59,573 nt of DNA, from positions 1-59,573 of IMG/VR virus record IMGVR_UViG_3300026125_000003; one strand, written 5' to 3'. Source of the DNA: a virus (Duplodnaviria > Caudoviricetes). The notes below the pieces were generated by a model. The model did not search any database. It saw only the letters and a program-made list of their open reading frames with translations, and had not been told where the DNA came from. The position numbers and the translations under genes were made by a program. Numbering within the stretch: position 1 is the first letter of the stretch; the number at the start of each line of letters is the position of its first letter. Below, one piece after another: positions 3,707 through 49,896 of this stretch.

Positions 3707-3837
3707 TGGCTAAGTACACTCGTTTCGATCCAAGAAACAAGAAACGTAATAAGCACAAGAATCGCGTTAAACAGGGTCTTAACGACAAGAAAATTCATAT
3801 TGTAGGGAAAACGTATGACGAGGATATTCGAACATAA
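3706..3837 (+). CDS. small basic protein (43 aa, MAKYTRFDPRNKK...), not in ORF track
   Basis: Hand-translated; TAATG coupling with phoH and GGAG upstream. Confidence 0.6.
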   Translation: MAKYTRFDPRNKKRNKHKNRVKQGLNDKKIHIVGKTYDEDIRT

Positions 3838-4495
3838 GGAAAACTTGCTCGGATACGATGACCTAGAAGTAATAGAAAGTAAAGAAGTGGGGAGGCGTTA
3901 TGTCTCCCCTTCTTCTAATAAGTACCCTTCGATTACAACAGTATTATCTATCCTAAGCGAAGATCATATCAAGAAATGGCGTGAACGTGTTGGTGAAGAA
4001 GAAGCCAACAAAATATCGTACCGAGCTTCTACCCGAGGCACTGCGGTTCATGCTATTATTGAAGACTATATAAACAATAAATTACAACCAAACCGATTTA
4101 TGCCTAATATCTTGGCAAACTTCAAATCTGTCCAACCCATACTCGACGAGCGTATAGGTACTGTATATGCCCAGGAAGCTGCGCTGTATTCGGATTACCT
4201 TGGTGTGGCGGGAAGGGTCGACTGCGTTGCTGAGTTTGACGGCAAGCTTTCTATAATTGACTTTAAGACTAGCAAGAAACCTAAGAAACCTGAGTGGATC
4301 GAGAACTACTTCATTCAGGAGACATTCTATGCTATTGCTTGGGAAGAACGCACTAAGCTGCCTATAACCCAACTGGTCACTATTATAGCTGTTGATAATG
4401 AACCGCCTCAGGTGTTTATCGAGCATCGCGATAATTGGGATGATAAATTACTGGAGACTATACGTGAATACAAAAGAAGAAACGGCATCGAATGA
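3815..4495 (+). CDS. PD-(D/E)XK exonuclease
   Basis: YPSITTVLS, RGTAVH, AGRVDC, IIDFKTS, YFIQ..Y motifs. Confidence 0.85.
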   Translation: MTRIFEHKENLLGYDDLEVIESKEVGRRYVSPSSNKYPSITTVLSILSEDHIKKWRERVGEEEANKISYRASTRGTAVHAIIEDYINNKLQPNRFMPNILANFKSVQPILDERIGTVYAQEAALYSDYLGVAGRVDCVAEFDGKLSIIDFKTSKKPKKPEWIENYFIQETFYAIAWEERTKLPITQLVTIIAVDNEPPQVFIEHRDNWDDKLLETIREYKRRNGIE

Positions 4496-17969: not shown

Positions 17970-18125
17970 ATGTTTATGATGAAAAGAATTACATTGAAGT
18001 CTGGTGGTACATTAATCACTCGTAGTGAAGTTGCTTTAGAGCAAGTTAAGGAAACCTTTAAAGATCAGATCGTTAAGATCGAGGATACCAATTATTCTGA
18101 ATTGAACACTACAATGGAACAGTAA
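17970..18125 (+). CDS. early micro-protein (51 aa), not in ORF track
   Basis: MFMMKRITLKSGG...; TAAGGA RBS. Confidence 0.65.
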   Translation: MFMMKRITLKSGGTLITRSEVALEQVKETFKDQIVKIEDTNYSELNTTMEQ

Positions 18126-18133
18126 GGTGTTGA

Positions 18134-18241
18134 ATGACACGGATAGACAAAGAAGTAATTGCAAATGGTGTGTTCGAACTCATAAGACTCGTAGCATACA
18201 TTTTAATTTGCATAGCTACAATTAAGTACATTGCATATTAA
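18134..18241 (+). CDS. micro membrane protein (35 aa), not in ORF track
   Basis: MTRIDKEVIANGVFELIRLVAYILICIATIKYIAY; TAAGGT RBS. Confidence 0.5.
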   Translation: MTRIDKEVIANGVFELIRLVAYILICIATIKYIAY

Positions 18242-18246
18242 CAAAA

Positions 18247-18672
18247 GGATCCCTGAGTCCCCCATGTGTTGGTTGGCGTGAAGAGAAATCTTCCGAGAGG
18301 TTGGTGGGGACACGAGACGAAGATAGAGGTTGGTGTTTTAAAAGGGGTTAATATCCCCAATAGACCTGTGAGTCAACTTCTTATGTCGCAAATGAAGGAA
18401 CTGAAATCCGTATTGTCGACGGTGGGACGTTCCGGAAAACAGTCGTTCCGTATGGGTGTGGCCAATCACCCTATAAATAAAGCAGAGTGTAAGCGGTGGG
18501 CTTCAAACCCCATTTAAGGAAACAGGTAGACAAATAGCAACACCTCAGTGACATGTTGGCAAGTTAAAGTTAGTCGTAAAACGCCATAGACTATCTACTT
18601 AAGATCACTAGGTTGGGATTGGAAGTTGCGATGCTGATGACTCCCATAGGTCAGCACTATATCTCAGGGTCT
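18247..18672 (+). ncRNA. candidate large structured ncRNA (~425 nt)
   Basis: No credible ORF; closing helix GGATCCCTGAG/CTCAGGGTCT; many internal helices; GAAA tetraloop and a T-loop-like hairpin. Confidence 0.55.
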
Positions 18673-18677
18673 TAGTT

Positions 18678-19234
18678 GTTACGATCTCTCAGTTAAAAGC
18701 TGTCGTAACGTAAAGCGAAGTCCAATATGATTAGCTCCTAAGGGTGCCCTGAGGCCAATTTTAGAAAGCAGATTGGGTAAAGCGTGGAAAGTGTGCTAGC
18801 CTCCACAGCGAGAAGTACCGATACGGCTTCTCTCAGCCATGGTCCAGTCTGTTTTCTAAAGAGCATCACCCCAGTTAAGTCTGGAGCACATCTGATAAAG
18901 TGTGTGGTGCTCTTTCTAAAGTACATTGAAAACACAGCAACTAGATCCCCTTACATGGCTGCAGTTTGGGATGGTGTTCTAGGAAAGCGGATCAGTGTAC
19001 TTTCTAATTCACAGTGATGCTCAAATCAGGCTCCACTACTCCAGTGTATGGAAGATAGAGAGCCTAAGCCTATCCTGAGAAGAACCTCCTTGTAATTCCT
19101 ATGTGCACGTAGGTTGATAATACTGGATAAGGATCGAAAGGTCGGGAGCCAGTAACTTTTACAAAGCAGGCTGCGTAAAGCGTGGTAAGGTTCAGCGAGT
19201 ACGTAGAAGACCACGTACAGTCTGTTTTCTAAAA
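18678..19234 (+). ncRNA. candidate array of stem-closed small structured RNAs
   Basis: Four 12-17 bp closing stems, each ending at TTTCTAA; two modules share CAGTCTGTTTTCTAAA, GTAAAGCGTGG and CAGCGAG. Confidence 0.6.
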
Positions 19235-19247
19235 AGAGAAACCCCTA

Positions 19248-19610
19248 ATGAAAAAGAAAGTCCTAATAGTAGACGACGATTTAACAATCATTAATGTATA
19301 TAAACGAGTCCTCGCTAAGAACGGGTATGAACCAATAGTGATGCGTTCCCCTCGTAAAGCGGACCTTGAAAACATACCTGAAGTCGACATCGCGATAGTC
19401 GATATGGTAATGCCTTATGTAAGTGGATTTGATTTTGTGTTGTACTTACATGAAAAGAAAATCAATATACCAGTACTGATAGTGTCCGGCGATAAAGGAA
19501 TCGCCAGGATGGTTACAACTATCAGAAGGGGTGAACTAACCGATGGTTGGTTGTATAAACCTGTCGCAGGTCACCAACTAATCGCAAAGATTGAGGAAAT
19601 CCTTTCTTGA
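19248..19610 (+). CDS. stand-alone response regulator receiver (CheY-like) protein
   Basis: VLIVDDD, phospho-acceptor Asp in IVDMVMP..SGF, VSG, YKP. Confidence 0.9.
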   Translation: MKKKVLIVDDDLTIINVYKRVLAKNGYEPIVMRSPRKADLENIPEVDIAIVDMVMPYVSGFDFVLYLHEKKINIPVLIVSGDKGIARMVTTIRRGELTDGWLYKPVAGHQLIAKIEEILS

Positions 19611-20050: not shown

Positions 20051-20314
20051 ATGATTAACTTTGTAACTGGAAAACCTTACACTGGTGAAAACGCAATGAT
20101 CCTTGCGGAATCAGGTTTTTCTGACCAGCGTTTTATGACATTCAACCAAGCACGTAGCTGTGGACGCAAAGTCCTTAAAGGTTCTAAAGGCATTCAGCTG
20201 ATGCGCGTCATTGAGAAAGAAGTTCGAAACGAAAAGACTGGTAAGCTGGAAAAGAAAAAGCTGCCAAAACGTTTCACTGTATTCAATGTAGCCCAGACTG
20301 AAGAGGTGGCTTAA
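20051..20314 (+). CDS. ArdC-like ssDNA-binding N-terminal domain protein
   Basis: NFVTGKPYTGEN, FMTFNQA..GRKVLKGSKG, FTVFNVAQTE. Confidence 0.8.
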   Translation: MINFVTGKPYTGENAMILAESGFSDQRFMTFNQARSCGRKVLKGSKGIQLMRVIEKEVRNEKTGKLEKKKLPKRFTVFNVAQTEEVA

Positions 20315-20682: not shown

Positions 20683-20937
20683 ATGTTTAACCGTGATGAA
20701 ATGTTTACTGCCCTCTCTACTGGAATTTACCGTGTAGTATTTGAGAAGGTTAATGGGGAAACTCGAGATATGACTTGTACTCGCCAACTTGATCGCATCC
20801 CTGAAGACAAACGTCCTAAAGGTGACGCTAATATCACCGCTCCAGGCGGACATGCAGTACCAGCGTTTGATACTAGCAAGCAGGAATGGCGTTCGTTCCG
20901 TGCTGACAAAGTAACAATCTTTGAGAAGAAAGGGTAA
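20683..20937 (+). CDS. SH3-like/WYL_2 small protein
   Basis: FEKVNGETRDMTCT ... FDTSKQEWRSFR. Confidence 0.75.
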   Translation: MFNRDEMFTALSTGIYRVVFEKVNGETRDMTCTRQLDRIPEDKRPKGDANITAPGGHAVPAFDTSKQEWRSFRADKVTIFEKKG

Positions 20938-35158: not shown

Positions 35159-38100
35159 ATGGCGAATAAAGAACAAAACCGAGTACCCTCAGTCATACCT
35201 GAAGACCTTGTCAATGTTGGCGGGTCTTTCGTTGAATTCATTAAGAAATATTATGAGTTCTTGAATCAAGATGGAATGCCTTCTGACATAATCAACTCCC
35301 CTTCTATACAGAGGGATTTGACGGATGCCGCTGACAATTTCTTAGATACGGTTCACGGAGAATTTGGTTTTGGATATCCGATCAACAAAGATTCTGATCG
35401 TGTAAATATTATTCAAAATATGTCTCGCATTTACGCGACGAAAGGTTCTCTAGATTCAGTCAAAATGCTTTTCCGAATTATGTTCGGAGAAGAAGTTGAA
35501 ATTACCCTACCAAAAGATTACATCCTAAAACCTTCTTCTGGTACATGGCTCAGCGAATATTCAATTATGGCTGACCTAGCCAGCGGAGACCCTTATGAGT
35601 TAATCGGTAAATTCGCTGAAGTTGAAACTAACTTTCCTGGTTCGCCTCCACAGACTTTTGAGGTTGAGGTAAACCGTGTTGTAAACAAAGGCAACAATAC
35701 TTACCAAATATTTTTCAACCGCTCGTTCGTCGGTTTCTTTTATAATGGGAGTATCATCCGTCTCGGCGATGTTAAATTAATCCATAAACCTTCATTGAGT
35801 AAAATCCTTTCCATTCAAGATGGGGGTTCAGGTTTCAGGGTTGGTGAAACGTTTGATGTAGTTTCTTACGAACGTGATAATGCGTACAATGACGTTCTTG
35901 GTATCCCTGACATTTACTTGCGAGAGAAAATAACCAGGAGATCTCGTTGGGGCAGACGTTCGCGCACGTACTATCGCCTAATCCCTGTTGAATATACAAG
36001 AGATATAACAAACGAAAGTGTTGATATTGACGTTCGTTCTGACGGTACGTTGACTGAACAGATTCAGATTGAAACTCGTTTGGGTACGGTTGAAGTCACT
36101 AACATCATTCGCGGTAATGATAAAACCGTTCGTGTAAAATACCCTAATGGTACAGTCACTGAAGTTAATGAAGAGTTGTCTGGATACTTCAGTTACGTCA
36201 AAGTTTTGGACGGAGGTACTGGCTATACAGTTCCGCCTGAAATTTCTATAACTGGTGGCGGGAATATAACCACGCCAGCTGAACTTGATTATACGCTTAA
36301 AGACGGTTCGTTGGATGAAGTTTTCATAGATAACGCTGGCGCAGGTTATAACGATTACCCAGAAGTCACAATAGATGCCCCGTATACAGCTGGCGCTACT
36401 GCCAATTCTTTTATCACGGGCGACGCTGTTACTAGTATTGCTGTTGTTGATGGCGGTTTCGGTTACAAATACCCACCTAATGTGAATATCACAGGGGACG
36501 GCATAGGCGCTCGCGCAGAGGCTGTAATTAACTCTAGAGGCGTTGTGACGGCAATTAACGTAACTGACGGTGGTAGTGGTTACAGTTCTGCTCCGACTGT
36601 TACAATGGCTCTGCCGACCGATCAACATAACGCTATCCTAGAGCCTGTTATTGTTGATGGTGAAATCACCAGCGTTGATATTGTATATCCAGGTTACAAT
36701 TATGACCTTAACAATAGAAGAAGCTATCGTGTCACATTCGTCAGAACTAGCGCTGTTACAGGTACAGTCGATGATGGCGTAACTGCTTCCGCTAAGGTGG
36801 AGTTCGACCTAAACGGCAGCGTGACCGCTGTGGTGATGGACACGTTCGGTACAAACTACGCTTCTGCGACCGCAGGCGTTTATATACCAGCACAAAACGT
36901 GTCAGGTGGCGTTCGAGCAACTGCTACATTAAACGTTGACCATTCTACTGGTGGTATTGCTTCATTATCTTCTATATCTACTGGATACGGGTACGAAGGC
37001 GTAGATGCTATTGAATCGGGTTCTGGTACTCCAACCCGAAGAGCTTCTTACAGTGTTGAAATTACTGGCGGTGTAATAAGCGCAGTTGAAGTTGATGAAG
37101 CTGGTTCTGGATATCTATACCCTGAATTGACAGTAGAAGATTCTGGCGCTAACCCAGGATCGGGTGCTAGAATATACCCAATCTACAAAAACGGTGGGTT
37201 AGATGAAATAATTGTATTAAATGGTGGTACAGGTTATAATGTAGGAAACACTGGCATTGCTGACATCCCAGGATTCACTGTTCAACCTTCACTATTCTTC
37301 AGTTACGATTCTAATGGAACAATCACAAACGTTGAGGTGACTGATCCAGGTTCTGGTTTAGACACCCCTTCTATTTCATTATATGATGGCGCAAGCACGC
37401 CTTTAGTAACAGCAGTCGTTTATCCTCGAGTTTATCTAGGCAGTATTCTCGATGTTGAAATTTCATCTGGAGGTTCAGGTTATTCATGCCCAGAAGCTGT
37501 TGTTTCAGGGTTCACAACCGACCCCGCTTTATTAGATGTAGTCACACTAAACGGATATGTAACAGACGTTGTTATTTCAGATCCTGGGAGCCTATACACC
37601 CCAGTAATAACACTAATCTCCGCAAATAAAGTCACAGGGACTGATGCTGTAATAGTTCCAGAAACTTCAGGCGGTTCCCTCGTTGGCACTACCATCGTTG
37701 AGCGCGGAACCAATTACTCCCCTAGAGCGGTAATTAGCGTTGGCGGAAATGTTGAAATAAACGAAGTTGCTTCAATCTACCCTGTCGTTTCTTCGGTCGA
37801 CTCTTCAATAGAATCTGTTGAGGTTGTTGTACGAGGTCAAGGTTACGACCCAGTTCGAACAACTGTGACTATCGAATCCGACCAAGGTGACGGTGCTGTA
37901 ATTCAAGCTATCGTTGTTCCTGAAGGTGGCTCTGTAACCCCTAACTTGGATATCAACTGGGATGCTATTGCAGACGCCTTAACAAGTTTGGCTAATTTTG
38001 ACCCAACTGGCGAAGGAATAGTTGACACAGGGTTTGCGAACGAATTTGCGGTATTCTTAGGAAGCTTAGATACATCGGTAGAACCTCCACGTAGATACGG

Positions 38101-40357
38101 TGACTTGAATAATAGTGGTAGTGTCAGTTCTTCCGATGCGCTTGCCGCCCTCAAAGCATTAGTTGGGCTAACAGTTACTGCGGAAGTTGCGACCAACGTA
38201 GCAAAAATACAGGCTGTGTATCCTAATGTCGGAGAGTTGTCTCTGGCATTGAGCATCCTTCGACTTGCGGTAGGTCTAGATGACGATACACCGCCAGAAC
38301 AAATAGTCAACGACTGGGTTACTGGAATTCCGGAAGGCGGTGTTTATCAACGTGCTGATATAAGTCAAAGCGGAAATATTGATGCCGACGACCTACAGAA
38401 GCTCGCATATTACGCTTATTATGAATACGATCAAGCAGGCGTACACACGTTTGATGGGTTCTACTCTCAAGCAGATAAAGATAATATTGAAACGTTTTTG
38501 TTAGCTGAAGGTGGACCATTCCAAGATTACTTAAACGTGACTGAAGTAGAGTTCACTAACTTAGTTCTTGCTTCACTCCCAGACTTTGAAGATACTTCTT
38601 CTGAAAAACTGAAATCGTTCCTACTACAAGAAGACGTGGACTTCCCAGGTTTCTGTCGAGGCGACATAAACAACGATGGATTTATCGGCACAGACGATAT
38701 GATTCTGTTGATGCGTCGAGCTTCAGGTTTAGAAGTTGAGCCTCAACAATTACGTTGGATCGACGAGACCATTGCCGAACCACTTATCGGTTCGATATGG
38801 AACCCATTGCTACAACAAGGTAATGGTAGCGGAGCGAAAGCTGTTGTCCGTTCAGTCGATGTTAATGGAGCAATAACTAGCCTAGATTTCAACTCTTTTG
38901 GTTGGGATTATCCCGAAACGTTTTCTTCAAGCGTTTCGCCTAAATTACTATCGGGCACCCCAGCAACAATAGCGTACAGTAATGATATTGTAGGTATAAC
39001 GAACCCAGCTTACGTTGACCGACAAGGTTTCTTGTCAGATATAGTAAAAATTCATGATAATTTCTATTACCAAGACTATTCTTATGTAATTGATACTTCG
39101 GTCGACTTTACTGACTTTGAAGATATTGTTCTTCGTTCAGTTCATCCGGCTGGTATGAAAGTGTTTGGTCAACAAAGCATAAACGAAAGCATTGACGTTG
39201 AAGTTGGTGTCGACGAGGCTTTGGCTTTCCATTACAACCTGTTGTTCACATACTCCAACCCACTAGAATTGCCTTTAGTTGATGGCGTCGATAGCTACGG
39301 TGAAGCAGTATTCTTTGACGATAACAATGACGATGAAACCTTTGCTATCTACAAAGATTTAACCCACACATATAATCGTGGGGACAACGTAGACAATATA
39401 GTTCAAGACGAAACTTGGTACTTCACCAAAGACCTCACTAAAGATTCCGGTCGCGGTGATAATGTAGACGACATAGTTCAAGACGAAACTTGGTACTTCA
39501 CGAAAGACCTGACCAAAGAATCTGGGCGTGGCGATAATGTAGATGATATCGTTCAAGACGAAACTTGGTACTTCACCAAAGACCTTACACAAGACACTGG
39601 GCGTGGTGACGAAGTAGATAACCCTGTCGACGACGATACATTAATTATCCTTAAGGACTTATCGGAGGCTTCTGGTCGAGGCGACCGTATAGCACCAGAA
39701 AGAGTTGTTCAAGACGAAACTTGGGAATTTGAGAAAGACCTTACTGAGGCAACCAACAGGGGCGACCGTATTGCCCCAGAAAGAGTTGTTCAAGACGAAA
39801 CTTGGGAATTTGAGAAAGAACTTACTCAAGCTACTGGTCGAGGAGACGAAGTAGATAATCCAGTACAAGAAGATTACTGGAGTATGGGTAAAGCCCTTGT
39901 TGACCCAGCTGTCCTAGTTCGTGTGGAAACTCAAACTAATTTCATAACATTCGGATTGAACCCAAGCGCCAATAGGGATTCAAAGGCTGTTACAGGTTCT
40001 GTTCTTGGGAAAGACTTCATATTTGCTGAAGATAAATCAGAATTTATAGATACAATTGATAATAGCAGGTTTGACGATGTCATTGCCTTCTATAGAACTA
40101 AACTTCTTGGTCCAGAATTAATAGATCCTACAAGATTCGTTGATAATGGAACATACAATTTTGTAAATAAACCGCTCGTTTCATCTACTTCAATCCCTGG
40201 AAGTGTTGCTGAAATGAGTATAAATAAACCATATAGCAGTCCAGCTGTTACGGCAGGAAGTTCTGTCGCTGGCACTAACTCTAGCCCCTATATACAATCA
40301 GGCGGATCGTATTTCGAAGATGTATTTGATTACGCGACCGACTACCAAAACTTTTAA
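35159..40357 (+). CDS. gp7: baseplate wedge initiator gp7-like protein, greatly expanded with repeats
   Basis: F++F++KYYEFL, Y.TKGS..S..MLFR..FGE, LKPSSG.W; IHDNFYYQDYSYVI..VHPAGMKVFG; GGSGY repeats; between gp6 and gp8. Confidence 0.8.
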   Translation: MANKEQNRVPSVIPEDLVNVGGSFVEFIKKYYEFLNQDGMPSDIINSPSIQRDLTDAADNFLDTVHGEFGFGYPINKDSDRVNIIQNMSRIYATKGSLDSVKMLFRIMFGEEVEITLPKDYILKPSSGTWLSEYSIMADLASGDPYELIGKFAEVETNFPGSPPQTFEVEVNRVVNKGNNTYQIFFNRSFVGFFYNGSIIRLGDVKLIHKPSLSKILSIQDGGSGFRVGETFDVVSYERDNAYNDVLGIPDIYLREKITRRSRWGRRSRTYYRLIPVEYTRDITNESVDIDVRSDGTLTEQIQIETRLGTVEVTNIIRGNDKTVRVKYPNGTVTEVNEELSGYFSYVKVLDGGTGYTVPPEISITGGGNITTPAELDYTLKDGSLDEVFIDNAGAGYNDYPEVTIDAPYTAGATANSFITGDAVTSIAVVDGGFGYKYPPNVNITGDGIGARAEAVINSRGVVTAINVTDGGSGYSSAPTVTMALPTDQHNAILEPVIVDGEITSVDIVYPGYNYDLNNRRSYRVTFVRTSAVTGTVDDGVTASAKVEFDLNGSVTAVVMDTFGTNYASATAGVYIPAQNVSGGVRATATLNVDHSTGGIASLSSISTGYGYEGVDAIESGSGTPTRRASYSVEITGGVISAVEVDEAGSGYLYPELTVEDSGANPGSGARIYPIYKNGGLDEIIVLNGGTGYNVGNTGIADIPGFTVQPSLFFSYDSNGTITNVEVTDPGSGLDTPSISLYDGASTPLVTAVVYPRVYLGSILDVEISSGGSGYSCPEAVVSGFTTDPALLDVVTLNGYVTDVVISDPGSLYTPVITLISANKVTGTDAVIVPETSGGSLVGTTIVERGTNYSPRAVISVGGNVEINEVASIYPVVSSVDSSIESVEVVVRGQGYDPVRTTVTIESDQGDGAVIQAIVVPEGGSVTPNLDINWDAIADALTSLANFDPTGEGIVDTGFANEFAVFLGSLDTSVEPPRRYGDLNNSGSVSSSDALAALKALVGLTVTAEVATNVAKIQAVYPNVGELSLALSILRLAVGLDDDTPPEQIVNDWVTGIPEGGVYQRADISQSGNIDADDLQKLAYYAYYEYDQAGVHTFDGFYSQADKDNIETFLLAEGGPFQDYLNVTEVEFTNLVLASLPDFEDTSSEKLKSFLLQEDVDFPGFCRGDINNDGFIGTDDMILLMRRASGLEVEPQQLRWIDETIAEPLIGSIWNPLLQQGNGSGAKAVVRSVDVNGAITSLDFNSFGWDYPETFSSSVSPKLLSGTPATIAYSNDIVGITNPAYVDRQGFLSDIVKIHDNFYYQDYSYVIDTSVDFTDFEDIVLRSVHPAGMKVFGQQSINESIDVEVGVDEALAFHYNLLFTYSNPLELPLVDGVDSYGEAVFFDDNNDDETFAIYKDLTHTYNRGDNVDNIVQDETWYFTKDLTKDSGRGDNVDDIVQDETWYFTKDLTKESGRGDNVDDIVQDETWYFTKDLTQDTGRGDEVDNPVDDDTLIILKDLSEASGRGDRIAPERVVQDETWEFEKDLTEATNRGDRIAPERVVQDETWEFEKELTQATGRGDEVDNPVQEDYWSMGKALVDPAVLVRVETQTNFITFGLNPSANRDSKAVTGSVLGKDFIFAEDKSEFIDTIDNSRFDDVIAFYRTKLLGPELIDPTRFVDNGTYNFVNKPLVSSTSIPGSVAEMSINKPYSSPAVTAGSSVAGTNSSPYIQSGGSYFEDVFDYATDYQNF
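39330..39880 (+). repeat. tandem 75-81 bp coding repeats (KDLTxxxGRGDxVDxxVQDETWxF)
   Basis: GTTCAAGACGAAACTTGG recurs at 39401, 39476, 39551 and later; seven RGD-containing units. Confidence 0.9.
40219..40226 (+). promoter_or_regulatory. late promoter TATAAATA
   Basis: Exact consensus within the gp7 3' end. Confidence 0.5.
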
Positions 40358-42600: not shown

Positions 42601-45600
42601 ATGGCAGTAAATTTAGAAGGTGCGCCATATTATGACGATTACTTAGAGGATAAACAGTTTTACCGAATTCTGTTTAAACCTGGAGTTTCCGTCCAAGCGC
42701 GAGAGCTTACCCAGATGCAAACGATCATACAAAAACAGATCGAGCGTCATGGTAGGCATATTTTCAAAGATGGTGCGGCTGTATTAGACGGCACCTTTTC
42801 GTATGTAAACAACTTTAATGCGGTAAAACTTAATCCCGCAAACGGTTCTTTTATCGTAAACGAATACCTTGATCAACTAGTCGGAAAGACTATTGTTGGT
42901 CGAGAAACTGGTATTGTTGCCCGAGTGATTACTTACGAAGAGCGCACCGAGACCGACCCACCAACAATATATGTTTCGTATGTCAACGCATCTAAAGACC
43001 GTGTAACATCTACATTTGCCGATAACGAAGAATTATATTCTACAAGCGAAACTACAATCAACGGTATCGCCAAAGGGTTTACTGTAGCGGTCACTGCTAC
43101 TAATAACGCAAAAGCGGTCGCTTCATCTGCTGCTATCACCAAAGGCGTTTACTTCGTAAAAGGTCACTTTGTACTAGTAGACGAACAGCGCATTGTAATT
43201 TCTAAGTATGACAATAAACCAAACGCAAGGATTGGTCTAAAGGTCGTAGAGTCTATTGTTACTGCTTCTGAGGACGATAGCCTTCTAGATAATGCTAGTG
43301 GTACTCCTAACAACTCTGCTATAGGCGCAGACCGTTACTCTTTAGATTTGGTGCTAACGCATATTCCTCTGGATTCCACTGATGATGCCGATTTTATCGA
43401 ACTATCTCGAGTTGTTAATGGTGTCCAACAAGCTAAAGCTAAACCAACTGAATATTCAGTACTTGAAGAAAACCTTGCTCGCCGAACTTTCGACGAATCA
43501 GGGGATTACATTGTCAAACCATTCTCGTACAAGATCAGAGAATCTTTGGACGACGGTATTAATGGCGGTGTATATGAAGTGGACCAGACTACTGAAGACG
43601 GGAATACGCCTTCGAACGATTTGATGACGCTTCAAATCTCTCCAGGTAAAGCGTATGTTCGAGGTTATGAAATCGAAACAGTTGTACCTCGTTTCATTGA
43701 TATCGAAAAACCTCGAGACACGAAACGTGTTGATGGCGCAATTTCTACTATGGAAGTCGGCAACTACATTCGAGTCAATAAAGTAGTTGGTATGCCTGAT
43801 ACTGTTGGCGCTTCTTCTGAGATTCAAGACTACCCAGTCGTGAACCTTTATGACCAACCTGGAGCAACTGGTGAAATAATCGGACAGGCGCGTGTACGTG
43901 GCTTTGAATTCGATAGCGGAAACCAAGCTTCCGACAACGATGTATTCGGCGAAAACGATCAGTTCAAGCTTTTCCTATTTGATGTTAAAATAGGCACTAA
44001 ACTTGTGATGAACGATTCTCTTGTTGCATCGCAGCTTACAGTCGGTTCTTACATTACTGGTGTCACTTCTAGGTCAAGTGGTTATGTCCGCGAGATCGAT
44101 ACTGACAACAACGTTATTTGGGTCAACTCAGCCACAGGTAAATTCATTACTGGTACTAATGGCGAGAACATAACTTCAAATAATAGCGCAGAAACTAATA
44201 ACCTAGTCACAAACTCCGGTTCAACAGCCTTGAAGATTTCTTCTGCTGTTTACAATACGTTTGAATATGTTAAAAGTTTTTCTCTTTCTGACGCAGAAGA
44301 CGTTGCTTCAGGCGGTCTTGGTGCTGGGGCAACAACATTCCAAGCTGATTCTGTACTAGAACGTTCAACTCAAATCTCAGGGTTTGTGTCAACCACGGCT
44401 GCTTCGGCAACAATCAACGGCTTCAATACCCTATTTGAGCAAGACCTTCGTGTCGGTGACGCAATTTCTATACCTTCTGGGGCTGGTGGCGTTAATCAGA
44501 TATTCTATATCTCTCAGATTAATTCTAACACCAGTTTGACAATTGATGCCGCAACATCAACTACTACCGAAAACCCAGACGGACTACCAGATGTAAGCGT
44601 ATCTTCTGTCGCTGCTTATCGCAGACGTTCAGTACTGAACGACCAAGATAAAAACATCTTGGTTCGCAAACTTGCTACCGATTACATCTCAACGCTTAAA
44701 CCAGACGGAATCAACGTAAATACAATTGCGGCTACAGTTCGCGAAGAATTCGTTGAATCTGCTAATGAAGGTAAAATTTCAATAAGCGCGGCAGGTAGAT
44801 TCTCTGCTGAATCCAACTACAACTACCAAGTTGTTGTATTAAATCCTGGTGTTGGGGCTTCTGCTTCTGCTGGCGATTATGTTAACATGGAAAATGCTGG
44901 TGTGTCAATTACTGGTGCCGATACTGGTAGCAGCAAAATTGAAATCAATGTACCAGTTAGCATTATCGGTTCTGGTTCTTCTGTACCAGTAAAAGTAATC
45001 GCAACTTACACCAAAACCAATGCTGCTCCGAAATCTAAGAGTGCAGCAATCAATAAACTATTGGTCCGTAACATCTCTGGAGTTGCTGACTATGGTACTA
45101 GCACAAACCATAGAGATTGGTCTCTTGGTACTGCTGACGTTTATAAGTTGTTGGCTGTGTATGATTCTGGTACTGTCGGAACTGCCCCTACTATTCCGAA
45201 CATCGTATACAACAATTTGTCTGGAAGTCAGTTCCAGCAAGGCGAGCTCCTTGTAGGTGAAGATTCTGGCGCAGTTGCTATGTACATTGAAAATGTCAAT
45301 AGTACATTAAGAGTTGTGCCTCAGAGTAACACCAGATTCGTTGCTGGCGAGTTAGTTACTGCCCAATCGAGCGGTATCACTTTCAACGTCACTTCTTACG
45401 AAAAGGGAAGTACTAATATTACTGGCCAGTTCCTTCTTGACACTGGACAGCGCGATAACATATACGATATAGCAAAACTTGTTAAGAAGAACGTTTCGTT
45501 CAAACCTACTGGCGATGTTGTTGTATTGTTTAAATCGTTCTCTCATGGTACTGGCGATTTCTTTACTGTCGACTCTTACTTCGGTTCTGTTGATTACTCT

Positions 45601-48600
45601 GAGATCCCTCAGTATAACTCGACTCGCGTTGATACCGAAACTCGTGACCCTGACGGTAACTATGACCTAGAATCTTGTGTTGACTTCCGCCCACGTGTTG
45701 CTGACGCTATTACTGCGGTGGATGGGACTAGCGGATTCAAATACGTAAATGCGCCTTCTTTGGACTTCAATAACCGTAACTTCTCAGGCTTGGGGTCTTC
45801 TGTAAGCCTAGTTCCTGCAGATAACTCAAACTTCTTGTACGATTATGAATACTATTTGCGTAGGAATGATTCAATTTTCTTGACTAAGAAAGGTAAATTC
45901 GTCCACGTAAAAGGTATACCAAGCGAACAACCTAACCGTCCTCTTGATATAGAGAATGCTATCCGCTTGATTGATATCGACATGGCTCCTTATGCTTCTG
46001 ATGTTTATAATGAAGTCCTTGTTAAAAAGACTAGACATAAACGTTATACAATGAAGGATATTAGTCGCCTTGAAGATCGAATCAGCACCCTTGAATATTA
46101 CACTTCTTTGACTCTACTTGAAAAAGACGCTGCTTCTCTACAGGTTAAAGACGCGAACGGTCTAGACCGTTTTAAATCTGGATTTGTAGTTGATAACTTT
46201 GCTGGTCATGCGACTGGTGACGTTCTAGCTCGCGATTACCGCTGTGCTATGGACATGTCTTCTCGAGTTTTGAGACCTAAGTATTCGATGCGAAATATAG
46301 CATTGACAGAAAATGATCTTGAAGGATCTAACTACAAGGTCACTGGCAATATCGCTACTCTCGATTACGAAAACGTTGTTTCTATAGAACAGGTTTATGC
46401 TTCTCGTATTGAAAACCTAAACCCAGTATTGAATTTCTCTTGGGCTGGACGAGTTAAATTAGAACCTTCTTCTGACGAATGGTTTGAAATTAACCGCCTA
46501 CCTGATATTACAATCAACCAGGAAGGTAACTTCAATACAGTTTTGGCTCAGAACGCGAATGCCCTTGGTACAATCTGGGATGCCCCAACACTACAATGGA
46601 GCGGAAATACCACAACATCTTCCACGGAATGGAGAGAAACACAGTTCGGTAATGGTCCTAACGGTGCGCGTGCCCCACGTCGAATATTGAGAACTACAAC
46701 TACTACAGAAACTGGTACCGCAACGCGGACTGGTGTTTCTACTCAGGTAGTGCAGCAGATCGATATTGAGTCTCAAGGCGATGCTCTGTTGTCATCTGAA
46801 CTTATCCCATACATGCGCTCTCGCGATATCTACTTTGAAGCAAATGGTCTTAAACCGTTCACTCGTGTTTACCCATTCTTCGATAAAGTTAATGTTAGCA
46901 ATTATGTACAACGTGCTACTGGCGCGTATGAACCTATAGATCCTAATGCAGTGAAAGTTGCTACTGTCGGCGATAAGAAGTGGACTAAGATATCTAAAGT
47001 CGAGATCTTCTATGACGGTAACAGAATTGTTAATACAATATACCTACAATGGAAACAGAACCCAGACGACGATTGGCGTCTGATTGGGCGTGTAGCTTCC
47101 GAAAACTCAGGCGGTGTCGCTTCTCCTAATGGATACAATGTTGCTGCGTTTAATCTGGGAACAGATAGCTATGTAGAACCAAACGAGAACGGGTTGGTCT
47201 ACTTCCGCGTACTTGTTAACCGTCGTAACATGAACATCCCTGCCTCAGACGGCAGCTATGGTGGCGCTTACACTGAGTACCTTTCCGTTCAGTTAAGTGA
47301 AATACGTTCTTATGCTGTATTGGAAAACCCTGCTGAAGCTGAAGAAGGCACTGATCCAAACTACTACTTGTTGGACAACCCTACTCGCGCTGAAGTTACT
47401 TCCACTTTCAATATATCGAAAAAGAGTTGGGAATGGATCGTACCATGGTACGATAGTTTCATTAGAGGATACCCAGGGGTTTCTAAACTTGCCGACCAGT
47501 CTGGTTCAGCTAAAAACTTGTTCGATGGCGTTGTAAACTATGACTCCAACCGTTCAAATTTATCTGAAGCCTATGCATCTAACTCTAGACATGATATCGT
47601 GGTTGAGTGGAAGATGCGCGGTGGCGTTTCTTCAAGCGGTGCTGCAGAAGAGTTGTTTATATCTCCAGATAATATTTCTCTCGACGATGGCGCACTGGTT
47701 ACTGACGGTGCCGGTCGAGTTGCTGGTGTATTCACAATCCCTGACTCTACTATAGCTGGTAATCCTGCGTTCTTGACAGGTGAACGTCTGTTCCGCCTAT
47801 CTTCATCTCCGACTAATGCCGATGAAGGTGTTGAAACATTCGCTCAGGCTCCATATACTGCTAAAGGTATTCTGGAAACGCGCCAAGAAACTTTCACAGC
47901 CACTCGTAACGGTGTTGTGACAACTAGGGACGTCAGTGAAACGGTGAACGTTTCTCGAGTAGTTGACAGAACTACTACCCAAATTGGTTGGTGGGACCCT
48001 CTAGCTCAGTCAATCATGCCTTCTACTGAAGGTGGCGAGTTCGTCACTAAGGTTGAAGTATTCTTCCATAGTAAAGACCCTAGCCTACCAGTAACATGTG
48101 AACTTCGCGAGATGGTTAATGGTTACCCAACAACCAAAGTTCTTCCAATGGCGTCTAAGACTCTTACTCCTGATGAAGTATATACTGACCCATTGAAAGG
48201 TGAAGTTGGTACGAGTTTCGTATTCGATTCTCCGATCTACCTACCTCAGAACGTAGAAGTTGCTATTGTACTTTGGACCGATTCCGACAAATACTTGACT
48301 TGGATTAGTCGAATGGGTGATAAGGATACTAATGGTCGTACGATTTCTGAACAGCCTTACCTTGGTGTGTTGTTTAAATCGCAGAACAACTCAACTTGGA
48401 CTGCTTATGATTATGAAGACCTCAAGTTTAGAGTATATCGCGCCAAGTTTGATATTTCTCAGCCTGCAACTATTGTCCTAGAAAACGATAGTGATAAAAT
48501 GGTCGAGCAAATTCGAAACTTTAACCCAATATCTCTTACTGCTGGAAGCACTGTGGTGAAAGTTAATCACAGCGACCACGGTATGTACAGCGGTAGCGAT

Positions 48601-49896
48601 TATGTGACGCTCTCTGGCTTGTCTTCTAACGTAGTTCAACAGATGATCACTGAAATCGACTCAGTATCTTCCGGAGTTTCTTTCTTTGTGGGTGACGCAA
48701 CTACTGTGACATCTCCTTGGAATGGAATGCCAGACCCTACTGATACAGTGACTGAACACTACTTTAAAATATACAATTTGGCTCAGTTTGAAGAACAACC
48801 TGAGATTATCAAAGGTACTGTTTCTTTGGATACTGAACCGACTAGTGGTCAGACTCGCTACAAGATTACAGCTACTCAACGTGGTCTATTCGGGACACTA
48901 GCATTAACATTCCCATTGATAGATGTTAATGGCGACGGTTCTTTGTACGCTGGATCTCCGGTTGAGCTTTATGAATATAATGGAATACCATTGTCAGATA
49001 TTAATGCGACGCATAAAATTATCGACCATGGTCTGGATTATTACACAATTGACATCTCAGACGTTGATTCTTATTCTGGCGCAGTTCCTTCTATCACTGA
49101 GAATATCGGTGGCGAAAGGGAAGTGAGAGCAACGTTTAATGCTATGGCTGACGCTTATCAGTTGATGATACCGATTATCAATTACCCTGAAACTTCTGTT
49201 CGCACAGAACTACAGATGGTAACGGCTACTTCACCGAGCGGCAATCAGGCGCCATACATAAGCACAGGATACTTTGAAACAACTGTCGGTGATCGTGTTG
49301 AGTTCGCTGATCCGCATATGATTGCTTCGACTACTAACGAAGCTAAATCAGCTGGCGGCAATAAGACGTTCAGAACCCGCATCACTCTTCAATCTACTGT
49401 AGATAACTTATCTCCAGTCGTTGACCTTGAGCGTAAATCTATCACCACGTACTCTAACCGTTTGGATAACATTAAGAGTGCTAATGATGTGTTCCCAGCA
49501 GAAAGTTTTGTTGAAGCAACTGAGCCAGAAGGCGATAGCGGCGAATCTATCTACATTACTAAACGAGTTCAGCTAGAAACTCCAGCAACTTCAATCAAGG
49601 TACTTCTTGATATTATTCGAGATGCTTCTGCTGAAGTTCAAGTTATGTACAAGATTCTACGTTCTGATGACTCTACTGACTTCGATGAAATCGGTTGGAC
49701 TTACTTCAACGGAACTGGTGGTCCTGATAAAAATGTATTGCCAGTAAGCGATCTTTTGACTTACAAAGAATATGAGTTCACAGAAGACGAACTTCCTGAA
49801 TTTATCTCTTTTGCTGTTAAGATCAAGATGAATGGTACTAACTCTGCTCGTCCTCCTCAATTGAAGAATTTACGAGCAATAGCATTGGCGGTATAA
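42601..49896 (+). CDS. large virion structural protein (VrlC/DUF4815-like)
   Basis: PYYDD...FYRILFKPG..VQARELTQ.Q, LARRTFDESGDY, RYTMKDI..LE.RI..LEYYTSL, DPLAQS, LRAIALA end. Confidence 0.85.
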   Translation: MAVNLEGAPYYDDYLEDKQFYRILFKPGVSVQARELTQMQTIIQKQIERHGRHIFKDGAAVLDGTFSYVNNFNAVKLNPANGSFIVNEYLDQLVGKTIVGRETGIVARVITYEERTETDPPTIYVSYVNASKDRVTSTFADNEELYSTSETTINGIAKGFTVAVTATNNAKAVASSAAITKGVYFVKGHFVLVDEQRIVISKYDNKPNARIGLKVVESIVTASEDDSLLDNASGTPNNSAIGADRYSLDLVLTHIPLDSTDDADFIELSRVVNGVQQAKAKPTEYSVLEENLARRTFDESGDYIVKPFSYKIRESLDDGINGGVYEVDQTTEDGNTPSNDLMTLQISPGKAYVRGYEIETVVPRFIDIEKPRDTKRVDGAISTMEVGNYIRVNKVVGMPDTVGASSEIQDYPVVNLYDQPGATGEIIGQARVRGFEFDSGNQASDNDVFGENDQFKLFLFDVKIGTKLVMNDSLVASQLTVGSYITGVTSRSSGYVREIDTDNNVIWVNSATGKFITGTNGENITSNNSAETNNLVTNSGSTALKISSAVYNTFEYVKSFSLSDAEDVASGGLGAGATTFQADSVLERSTQISGFVSTTAASATINGFNTLFEQDLRVGDAISIPSGAGGVNQIFYISQINSNTSLTIDAATSTTTENPDGLPDVSVSSVAAYRRRSVLNDQDKNILVRKLATDYISTLKPDGINVNTIAATVREEFVESANEGKISISAAGRFSAESNYNYQVVVLNPGVGASASAGDYVNMENAGVSITGADTGSSKIEINVPVSIIGSGSSVPVKVIATYTKTNAAPKSKSAAINKLLVRNISGVADYGTSTNHRDWSLGTADVYKLLAVYDSGTVGTAPTIPNIVYNNLSGSQFQQGELLVGEDSGAVAMYIENVNSTLRVVPQSNTRFVAGELVTAQSSGITFNVTSYEKGSTNITGQFLLDTGQRDNIYDIAKLVKKNVSFKPTGDVVVLFKSFSHGTGDFFTVDSYFGSVDYSEIPQYNSTRVDTETRDPDGNYDLESCVDFRPRVADAITAVDGTSGFKYVNAPSLDFNNRNFSGLGSSVSLVPADNSNFLYDYEYYLRRNDSIFLTKKGKFVHVKGIPSEQPNRPLDIENAIRLIDIDMAPYASDVYNEVLVKKTRHKRYTMKDISRLEDRISTLEYYTSLTLLEKDAASLQVKDANGLDRFKSGFVVDNFAGHATGDVLARDYRCAMDMSSRVLRPKYSMRNIALTENDLEGSNYKVTGNIATLDYENVVSIEQVYASRIENLNPVLNFSWAGRVKLEPSSDEWFEINRLPDITINQEGNFNTVLAQNANALGTIWDAPTLQWSGNTTTSSTEWRETQFGNGPNGARAPRRILRTTTTTETGTATRTGVSTQVVQQIDIESQGDALLSSELIPYMRSRDIYFEANGLKPFTRVYPFFDKVNVSNYVQRATGAYEPIDPNAVKVATVGDKKWTKISKVEIFYDGNRIVNTIYLQWKQNPDDDWRLIGRVASENSGGVASPNGYNVAAFNLGTDSYVEPNENGLVYFRVLVNRRNMNIPASDGSYGGAYTEYLSVQLSEIRSYAVLENPAEAEEGTDPNYYLLDNPTRAEVTSTFNISKKSWEWIVPWYDSFIRGYPGVSKLADQSGSAKNLFDGVVNYDSNRSNLSEAYASNSRHDIVVEWKMRGGVSSSGAAEELFISPDNISLDDGALVTDGAGRVAGVFTIPDSTIAGNPAFLTGERLFRLSSSPTNADEGVETFAQAPYTAKGILETRQETFTATRNGVVTTRDVSETVNVSRVVDRTTTQIGWWDPLAQSIMPSTEGGEFVTKVEVFFHSKDPSLPVTCELREMVNGYPTTKVLPMASKTLTPDEVYTDPLKGEVGTSFVFDSPIYLPQNVEVAIVLWTDSDKYLTWISRMGDKDTNGRTISEQPYLGVLFKSQNNSTWTAYDYEDLKFRVYRAKFDISQPATIVLENDSDKMVEQIRNFNPISLTAGSTVVKVNHSDHGMYSGSDYVTLSGLSSNVVQQMITEIDSVSSGVSFFVGDATTVTSPWNGMPDPTDTVTEHYFKIYNLAQFEEQPEIIKGTVSLDTEPTSGQTRYKITATQRGLFGTLALTFPLIDVNGDGSLYAGSPVELYEYNGIPLSDINATHKIIDHGLDYYTIDISDVDSYSGAVPSITENIGGEREVRATFNAMADAYQLMIPIINYPETSVRTELQMVTATSPSGNQAPYISTGYFETTVGDRVEFADPHMIASTTNEAKSAGGNKTFRTRITLQSTVDNLSPVVDLERKSITTYSNRLDNIKSANDVFPAESFVEATEPEGDSGESIYITKRVQLETPATSIKVLLDIIRDASAEVQVMYKILRSDDSTDFDEIGWTYFNGTGGPDKNVLPVSDLLTYKEYEFTEDELPEFISFAVKIKMNGTNSARPPQLKNLRAIALAV

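Follow-up and report, generated by a model that had tools for sequence, protein, structure and literature searches.

ToxI is a tandem array of identical 36-nucleotide (nt) repeats that are cut by its toxin, and the phage PhiTE reportedly carries a pseudo-ToxI that serves as an RNA antitoxin mimic against ToxIN. The abiF RNA is described as neutralising the AbiF HEPN RNase by direct binding, in the manner of a type III antitoxin (10.1101/2025.04.15.648962), and a review states that in the cryo-electron microscopy complex the nucleotides of an abiF single-stranded bulge block the AbiF active site (PMC12737573). For S-CREM1, an estuarine T4-like cyanophage, Table 4 of the report places wcaG, manA and abiF RNAs within ~800 nt and lists the abiF motif with no functional reading (PMC9964418). 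Two-piece genes for transfer-messenger RNA (tmRNA) in marine myophages are likewise already in print (PMC9004378). Clusters of structured RNAs in phages and phage abiF motifs are hence both known, and are left unexplained in the literature searched, where nothing is said of conserved cargo in the intervening segments that phage tmRNA genes contain. Here we analyse an array of structured RNAs at approximately positions 18243-19234 of IMGVR_UViG_3300026125_000003, a stretch of 59,573 nt (the window, whose coordinates are used below) that is an IMG/VR fragment of a distant T4-like phage. The array comprises seven or more discrete cassettes, all non-coding, which we call X, module 0, M1, M2, M3, E and M4. 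We explain the locus, with moderate confidence, as a plus-strand array of structured-RNA cassettes whose cargo would be freed by host RNA-maturation nucleases and would include at least one antitoxin mimic. What carries this explanation is the structure of the cassettes, their conservation, their modular exchange, the transfer RNA (tRNA) and tmRNA slots that they occupy in relatives, and the homology of cassette E to abiF-bearing cassettes.

The logic proposed here, mimicry of a type III antitoxin by a phage RNA, is the one that the pseudo-ToxI of PhiTE is said to follow. Unlike in a ToxI-type array, the modules of the window differ in length and core, and no toxin family was found among the genes neighbouring the array. 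S-CREM1, as its table presents it, is similar in that abiF lies within a structured-RNA cluster of an estuarine T4-like phage; in contrast, wcaG and manA RNAs have no match in the window, the cassettes of which belong to different, unnamed families that share a helix base. The stable RNAs C and D of T4 (NC_000866 annotation), small non-tRNA RNAs beside T4-type tRNA genes, are also like the array, although rnaC has a tRNA-like T arm, whereas the window cassettes have no T arm and no sequence in common with it.

In the explanation that we favour, each cassette presents a conserved core on a sequence-variable closing helix with an AAAG/CUUU base, and neighbouring cassettes abut via CU or CUAA. 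The same cassettes in relatives fill slots that are cut by host RNA-maturation enzymes, namely between tRNA genes and in the CCA-to-GGGG gap of a two-piece tmRNA, and in the window they are strung together without tRNAs. As for the mechanism, the array would be transcribed as one precursor with the flanking plus-strand genes, and host maturation nucleases, with RNase P, III or E as candidates, would cut at the helix bases to give stable small RNAs. Cassette E is probably an antitoxin mimic directed against abortive infection, and the other cargoes would act on other host factors; that M1-M4 and module 0 are decoys or sponges for such factors is our leading guess. A bolder extension, which we put forward only tentatively, is a plug-in cargo-RNA system of marine T4-like phages, in which diverse cores including antitoxin mimics would be mounted on a standard AAAG/CUUU adaptor and would ride any tRNA- or tmRNA-maturation slot. 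The window would then be a tRNA-free concatemer, a multi-decoy anti-defence island that includes a circularly permuted antitoxin.

Table 1. Coordinates of the cassettes, their junctions and the adjoining gene in the window (bp, base pairs; ORF, open reading frame)
Feature	Position	Strand	Description
Element X, non-coding	18243-18525	+	77% identical over 232 nt to L038
Module 0	18662-18757	+	~13-bp closing helix (7 + 6 bp, 3-nt bulge), two inner hairpins, 3' G-CCA
M1 (type B cassette)	18760-18860	+	17-bp closing helix, 12 bp of which are the AAAG.../...UUUU base
Junction YUUU-CU-AAAG, M1/M2	18852-18861	+	read from sequence; again at 18912-18921 between M2 and M3
M2 (type C cassette)	18858-18915	+	12-bp closing helix; core 18870-18903
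M3	18918-19003	+	12-bp closing helix AAAGUACAUUGA/UCAGUGUACUUU, own core
CUUUCUAA	19000-19007	+	after M3; read from sequence
Cassette E	19008-19152	+	5' domain 19008-19083; 3' domain 19090-19152
M4 (type D cassette), M1 paralogue	19157-19234	+	ends 13 nt before next ORF
UUUUCUAA	19225-19232	+	after M4; read from sequence
Receiver-domain-only protein gene (context)	19248-19610	+	Pfam Response_reg, E-value 1.5e-13

All four closing helices that an earlier note on this DNA had proposed for consecutive modules are present; module 0, cassette E and the conserved element X lie outside what it described. The M1 helix (18760-18776/18844-18860) has 17 positions, 15 Watson-Crick and two G-U, the helices of M2 (18858-18869/18904-18915) and M3 (18918-18929/18992-19003) have 12 bp each, and in that of M4 (19157-19173/19218-19234) 5+11 positions are paired around one mismatch. 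Since several of the closing-helix pairs are G-U, which is A-C on the other strand, the folds are placed on plus-strand RNA. The paralogy of M1 and M4, also claimed earlier, is borne out by common stretches of 33 nt at 85% and 31 nt at 81% identity. Their 5' strands, GATTG and GGCTG, face an identical 3' strand and both pair with it via G-U wobble; the change does keep pairing, as had been noted, but through G-U only and therefore in plus-strand RNA only. When compared with 200 dinucleotide shuffles, the fold energies have z-scores of -4.43 for M1, -3.47 for M2 and -3.07 for module 0 (0/200 in each case), and of -2.66 for M4 (3/200).

Most cassettes consist of a conserved core on a closing helix with an AAAG/CUUU base. 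Helices of the form 12-bp AAAG...YTTT are found three times in the 59.6-kb window, both strands counted, and all three abut in the array, joined by CU; 20 shuffled windows gave 0-3 such helices each, with a mean of 0.8. The heptamer TTTCTAA does stand at the closing-helix 3' strands, where the earlier note had suggested a common processing site: four of its nine plus-strand copies are at closing-helix 3' ends (18853, 18913, 19001 and 19226). It is not enriched window-wide, with 15 copies on both strands vs 15.86 expected. We infer, from sequence only, that cleavage may take place at TTTCTAA. The motif GTAAAGCG is found at 18710, 18777 and 19175, as had been stated, but not only there; the window holds 8 copies vs 1.75 expected, and 0/100 shuffles reach 8.

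Relatives of the array were obtained from pattern scans and comprise L035, L041 and L154 from IMG/VR, and L037 with its twin L039, and L038, from metagenomes, all uncultured. Their cassettes are arranged differently. The order in L037 is tRNA-Met, tRNA-Leu, ~650 nt, tRNA-Asn, module 0, M2, E, tRNA-Tyr, M4 and an ORF, such that module 0 and M4 lie directly 3' of tRNA-Asn and tRNA-Tyr, respectively. L038 has module 0, cassette A, M1, and an M3 helix with the M4 core and extra hairpins, while L035 has the gp52 gene, a truncated tRNA-Arg-like piece, cassette A, and M1 with an insertion (~55 nt, in an apical hairpin). In L154, tRNA-Arg and tRNA-Asn are followed by ~560 nt of stem-closed elements that include abiF, and then by tRNA-Thr and tRNA-Ser. 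The M3 closing helix, identical, holds another core in L038 and L041, namely that of M4, and the YUUU-CU-AAAG junction is also present in L035 and L038. The flanking protein genes differ in every relative.

Changes inside the predicted helices nearly all preserve pairing. Module 0 is 91-92% identical in L037 and L038, and its 34 predicted pairs include two with compensatory changes, three with one-sided wobble changes and none that is broken. M1 has homologues in L038 and L035; two of its 30 pairs are compensatory and three have a broken or gapped cell. M4 is 93.6% identical in L037, with three one-sided wobble changes and no broken pair among 29. The picture of discrete modules that underlay the earlier note holds, on the plus strand; the modules are conserved far better than the neighbouring protein genes and are exchanged as units between phages.

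This degree of conservation bears on the alternative that survives best, namely that the array is the decaying debris of a former tRNA/tmRNA cluster, hairpins and fragments without present function. The closing helices do look like tmRNA intervening hairpins, a truncated tRNA-Arg-like piece stands beside the cassettes in L035, and all tRNAs have been lost from the window; however, the cores are 90-97% identical across phages whose core proteins are 74% identical (for M1, or module B, 93-94% nucleotide identity between the window and L035 vs 74% amino acid (aa) identity of gp52), and the loops of M2 are invariant in four lineages while its stems covary. We thus regard decay as unlikely.

The varying cassette order and the existence of solitary cassettes fit independent units better than one RNA. 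A single large multi-domain RNA of GOLLD or ROOL type, acting whole rather than as small RNAs, would suit the ~1 kb of gene-free, densely folded sequence and the tRNAs inside the region in relatives, tRNAs within the region being a trait of GOLLD. It is nevertheless quite unlikely, as the GOLLD and ROOL Rfam models give no match at E-values up to 10, cassette order and content vary among the relatives, and single cassettes occur alone in the phage CRP-143 and in tmRNA genes. We consider very unlikely that the array is a cis-acting leader made of terminators, attenuators or stability elements for the receiver-domain gene. M4 does end 13 nt before this ORF and contains a terminator-like hairpin with a U-rich run after it, but the downstream gene is different in every relative, with no receiver-domain gene kept beside the other arrays, and cassettes are also found far from any conserved gene. 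Least likely of all are DNA-level elements, such as miniature inverted-repeat mobile elements or recombination sites with the folds as by-products, for although inverted termini, a mosaic distribution and common junction sequences could favour exchange, the pairing requires G-U on one strand only, conservation lies in the cores and not in the termini, and no transposase or target duplication is seen.

A blastn search of the region against 50,697 phage records gave nothing at 1e-5, and relaxing the E-value to 10 added nothing beyond the M2 core in CRP-143 and two chance matches. Matches to plasmids were by chance only, inside coding genes, and L040, from the metagenome scan, was also a chance match. 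The 16-mer CAGTCTGTTTTCTAAA is found at 33 loci in IMG/VR, about the chance number, and the double-junction pattern at at least 112 loci, where none of the matches listed has a related helix and L052 consists of iterons. Patterns for M1/M4 and for module 0 had no match in the genome collection, a looser M1/M4 pattern had nine, all in GC-rich coding DNA, and a search by flank proteins found no relatives.

We now consider M2, the core of which consists of the hairpin CCAG-UUAAGU-CUGG and a 4-bp stem with the loop AUCUGAUAAA. It recurs in L037, in CRP-143 and in the intervening segments of the permuted tmRNA genes of L168, L173 and L174. In CRP-143, a Roseobacter podophage, it lies in the gene-free right end of the genome (L167 1485-1556, found by relaxed blastn), and the copy in L168 was found by pattern scan. 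In a four-way alignment over three helices, 96.2% of the cells are paired, with compensatory changes in 5 pairs (8 cells); the covariation score is reached by 0/500 shuffles, and slid controls pair 28-53%. Neither of the two loops, UUAAGU and AUCUGAUAAA, varies, nor does the CCAG/CUGG stem, while each lineage has a wholly different closing helix. With R1, a covariance model, two further copies were found in G004, the assembly that contains L168, and none in the other collected loci.

The copies in L168, L173 and L174 are all inside permuted tmRNA genes of the alphaproteobacterial type, as judged by ARAGORN and Rfam, and lie exactly in the gap that separates the CCA at which the acceptor piece ends from the GGGG at which the coding piece begins. 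G004 is labelled a Rhodobacteraceae bin. It has at least seven T4-type major capsid genes, eight alpha_tmRNA matches (seven above cut-off) and 34-39% G+C, and because of these capsid genes and alpha_tmRNA matches we take it to be largely a bin of T4-like phage contigs. The CCA-to-GGGG junction is present in seven of the eight matches, the exception being L191, and the corresponding intervening segments have lengths of 22, 25, 62, 64, 64, 94 and 150 nt. The short ones are simple hairpins; M2 is present in three segments and a different core in two. Their helices are AAAGUACACUAUU.../...GGUAGUGUACUUUU or similar, like AAAGUACACUA..., and are nearly the M3 closing helix, a near-identical version of which, AAAGUACACUAUU/GGUAGUGUACUUUU, closes the segment in L186. 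The array is thereby like a permuted tmRNA intervening segment in its AAAG.../...CUUUU helix base with an M2 core, as found in three phage segments, and unlike it in that the window has no tmRNA pieces and its cassettes are joined to each other.

Some further observations concern these segments. Those of L185 and L189 (G004:C69 and C174), 94 and 150 nt long, have other structured cores on a closing helix of the same type. At L168 5487-5575 there is a second copy of the tmRNA junction (GCCUCCACCA-AAAG ... CUUCUGAUGAAG) with another core and no tmRNA body, which looks like a detached cargo slot. A reading of M2 as an anticodon loop was dropped as unsupported.

Next, we turn to cassette E. L154 has the abiF motif RF03085 at 42.2 bits vs a cut-off of 37, and L037 has the same motif with a 64-nt insertion in a loop, at 18 bits. 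In both cases the motif is located at the 5' end of a cassette whose 3' domain is also present in E of the window, and 5/20 pairs of this domain are compensatory across the three phages. In the 5' domain of the window cassette there is an abiF-like internal loop in permuted form, GCU-CAAAUC-AGGCUC ... GAGCCU-A-AGC-CUAU (19019-19076), the full reading being GAU-GCU-CAAAUC-AGGCUC, 26 nt, GAGCCU-A-AGC-CUAU. The two helices around the A/CAAAUC internal loop that characterise abiF are found at 19019-19071 with their strand order swapped, such that the outer helix is loop-capped and a helix extends from the normal apical loop, which is opened. A search for the permuted arrangement, with looser criteria than the real site meets, gave one match in the window vs 8 in 300 shuffled windows. 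This arrangement appears to be a circular permutation of the abiF motif, a reading made post hoc. Cassette E is homologous to the abiF-bearing cassettes of relatives and would derive from an abiF RNA.

Features of the abiF RNA that E retains are the 3-bp GCU/AGC helix, the asymmetric CAAAUC/A loop and a second helix that is GC-rich. It differs in being permuted, with an open apical loop, no Rfam match and no Abi_2 gene nearby, and in that the motif is part of a larger cassette, the 3' domain of which is conserved. None of the four phage records, all of which are fragments, contains a gene for the AbiF/Abi_2 HEPN toxin (PF07751). The abiF motif is also found with no abiF gene annotated beside it in Acj61, a T4-like Acinetobacter phage (58 bits, intergenic before a homing endonuclease gene), and in CRP-143 (50.8 bits, between the scaffold and capsid genes, L166 1997-2034), both of which are cultured and lytic. 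Together with S-CREM1, as far as its table shows, they resemble the window as lytic phages that have the motif and no Abi_2 gene annotated beside it. The bacterial genome G020 served as a positive control; in it, an Abi_2 gene follows ~110 nt downstream of the motif. CRP-143 bears both motifs discussed here, that of abiF within the capsid-gene leader and that of M2 near its right end.

In two estuary metatranscriptome runs, contigs match 18871-18902, 19007-19152 and 19174-19215, that is, pieces of M2, E and M4, at 90-99% identity, and these matches weakly support transcription of the array and lend no support to its processing. The contigs continue into unlike sequence at cassette boundaries, those of E at both ends of 19007-19152, which again indicates cassette shuffling. 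Contigs with the M2 core run on into tmRNA acceptor and coding pieces. The CCACCA that precedes the helix in RNA contigs was considered as a tRNA end or as part of a long helix; both options were rejected, and it is the acceptor end of the tmRNA.

It must be stressed that several findings weigh against the explanation given at the outset. The argument from maturation slots is borrowed from relatives, because the window has no tRNA or tmRNA, and recombination rather than processing could lie behind the common helix bases. Covariation was evaluated with 2-4 closely related sequences per cassette, which supports the structures without proving them. The fold of M3 is below significance (z -1.27, 21/200), and element X has neither an Rfam match nor a thermodynamic signal (z +0.2 to +0.3). 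The permuted topology is the minimum free energy fold of E, but its z-score of -1.25 is unremarkable, and the conserved abiF apical loop CUCU..ACGAU is not found in E, where only CUAU and GAU remain, flanking the added helix. RF03085 gives no match on the window at E-values up to 10 (gathering score 37 bits). Among the genomes of the family of G004, the abiF motif is present in only 2/151 (G004 included), and the M2 motif, searched with R1, in 0/150 others, so that G004 itself is the single case in 151. Finally, both RNA runs are contigs, uninformative on ends and strand, and RNA libraries may contain DNA. The antitoxin mimics suggested in the earlier note gain a concrete lead in cassette E, via its abiF-bearing homologues, while M1-M4 match no known antitoxin or decoy and E of the window fails the Rfam model.

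The locus links unnamed RNA families, conserved better than core phage proteins, with the maturation slots of tRNA and two-piece tmRNA as a delivery route, and also with an RNA antitoxin motif that lytic phages carry without a toxin. If the decoy reading is true, phage tRNA clusters would be anti-defence loci, beyond tRNA replacement, and phage tmRNA genes would have cargo bays in their variable intervening segments. As Acj61 and CRP-143 are cultured, they offer directly testable reagents.

Several RNA families of the array have no entry in Rfam 15, and for M1, M3 and M4 no relative is known. No Rfam family is found in the window at gathering score, and none at E-values up to 10 over 18100-19400; neither ARAGORN nor Rfam (RF00005 for tRNA) gives any tRNA or tmRNA gene in the window. 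Module 0, which has a GCCA end after a 7-bp stem and no T arm, is adjacent to tRNA in relatives only, and a T-loop reading of M4 was dropped as unsupported.

Element X overlaps an 83-aa ORF of the window (18266-18517) that is broken in L038 by five stops and several indels, and one of its hairpins swaps GGGG/CCCC for GCCU/AGGC there. In L038 it lies ~1.2 kb from the array. It contains TATAAATA at 18472-18479, which we take to be the T4 late-promoter consensus and which is not kept in L038.

Two of the relatives contain additional elements. Between tRNA-Asn and the abiF motif, L154 has two more stem-closed elements (3811-4073) with 14-22-bp closing helices, one of which shows UAAAGCG followed by a hairpin, like M1, M4 and module 0. 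The piece of L035 at 2459-2531, directly after gp52, is like tRNA-Arg(UCU), with the D, anticodon and T arms in place but without a 5' acceptor strand to match; it scores 32.4 bits in Rfam over model positions 10-63 and is not called by ARAGORN. It probably represents a tRNA in decay next to live cassettes.

The window as a whole has an estimated completeness of 33%. PHROGs assigns it both topoisomerase II subunits, an Alt-like ADP-ribosyltransferase, a baseplate wedge protein and a long tail fibre, and the large topoisomerase subunit has its best identity among cultured phages, 53%, to KVP40-like Vibrio phages. The genes flanking the array are on the plus strand, and ~1 kb, from the end of a small ORF at 18241 to the ORF start at 19248, is without a credible gene. 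Downstream of the array there follow the receiver-domain-only protein, an ArdC-N-like ORF, a WYL_2 protein, the late-transcription coactivator, gp59 and gp32. The first of these is a stand-alone response-regulator receiver domain of 120 aa, phage-encoded and directly 3' of the RNA array. For the ArdC-N-like ORF, of 87 aa (20051-20314), the match to the ArdC N-terminal (anti-restriction) domain is limited to the C-terminal two thirds of that domain, and with the WYL_2 protein nearby (20683-20937) the ORF possibly forms an anti-defence neighbourhood. Two giant ORFs of 1732 and 2431 aa (35159-40357 and 42601-49896) are located among the baseplate and tail-fibre genes.

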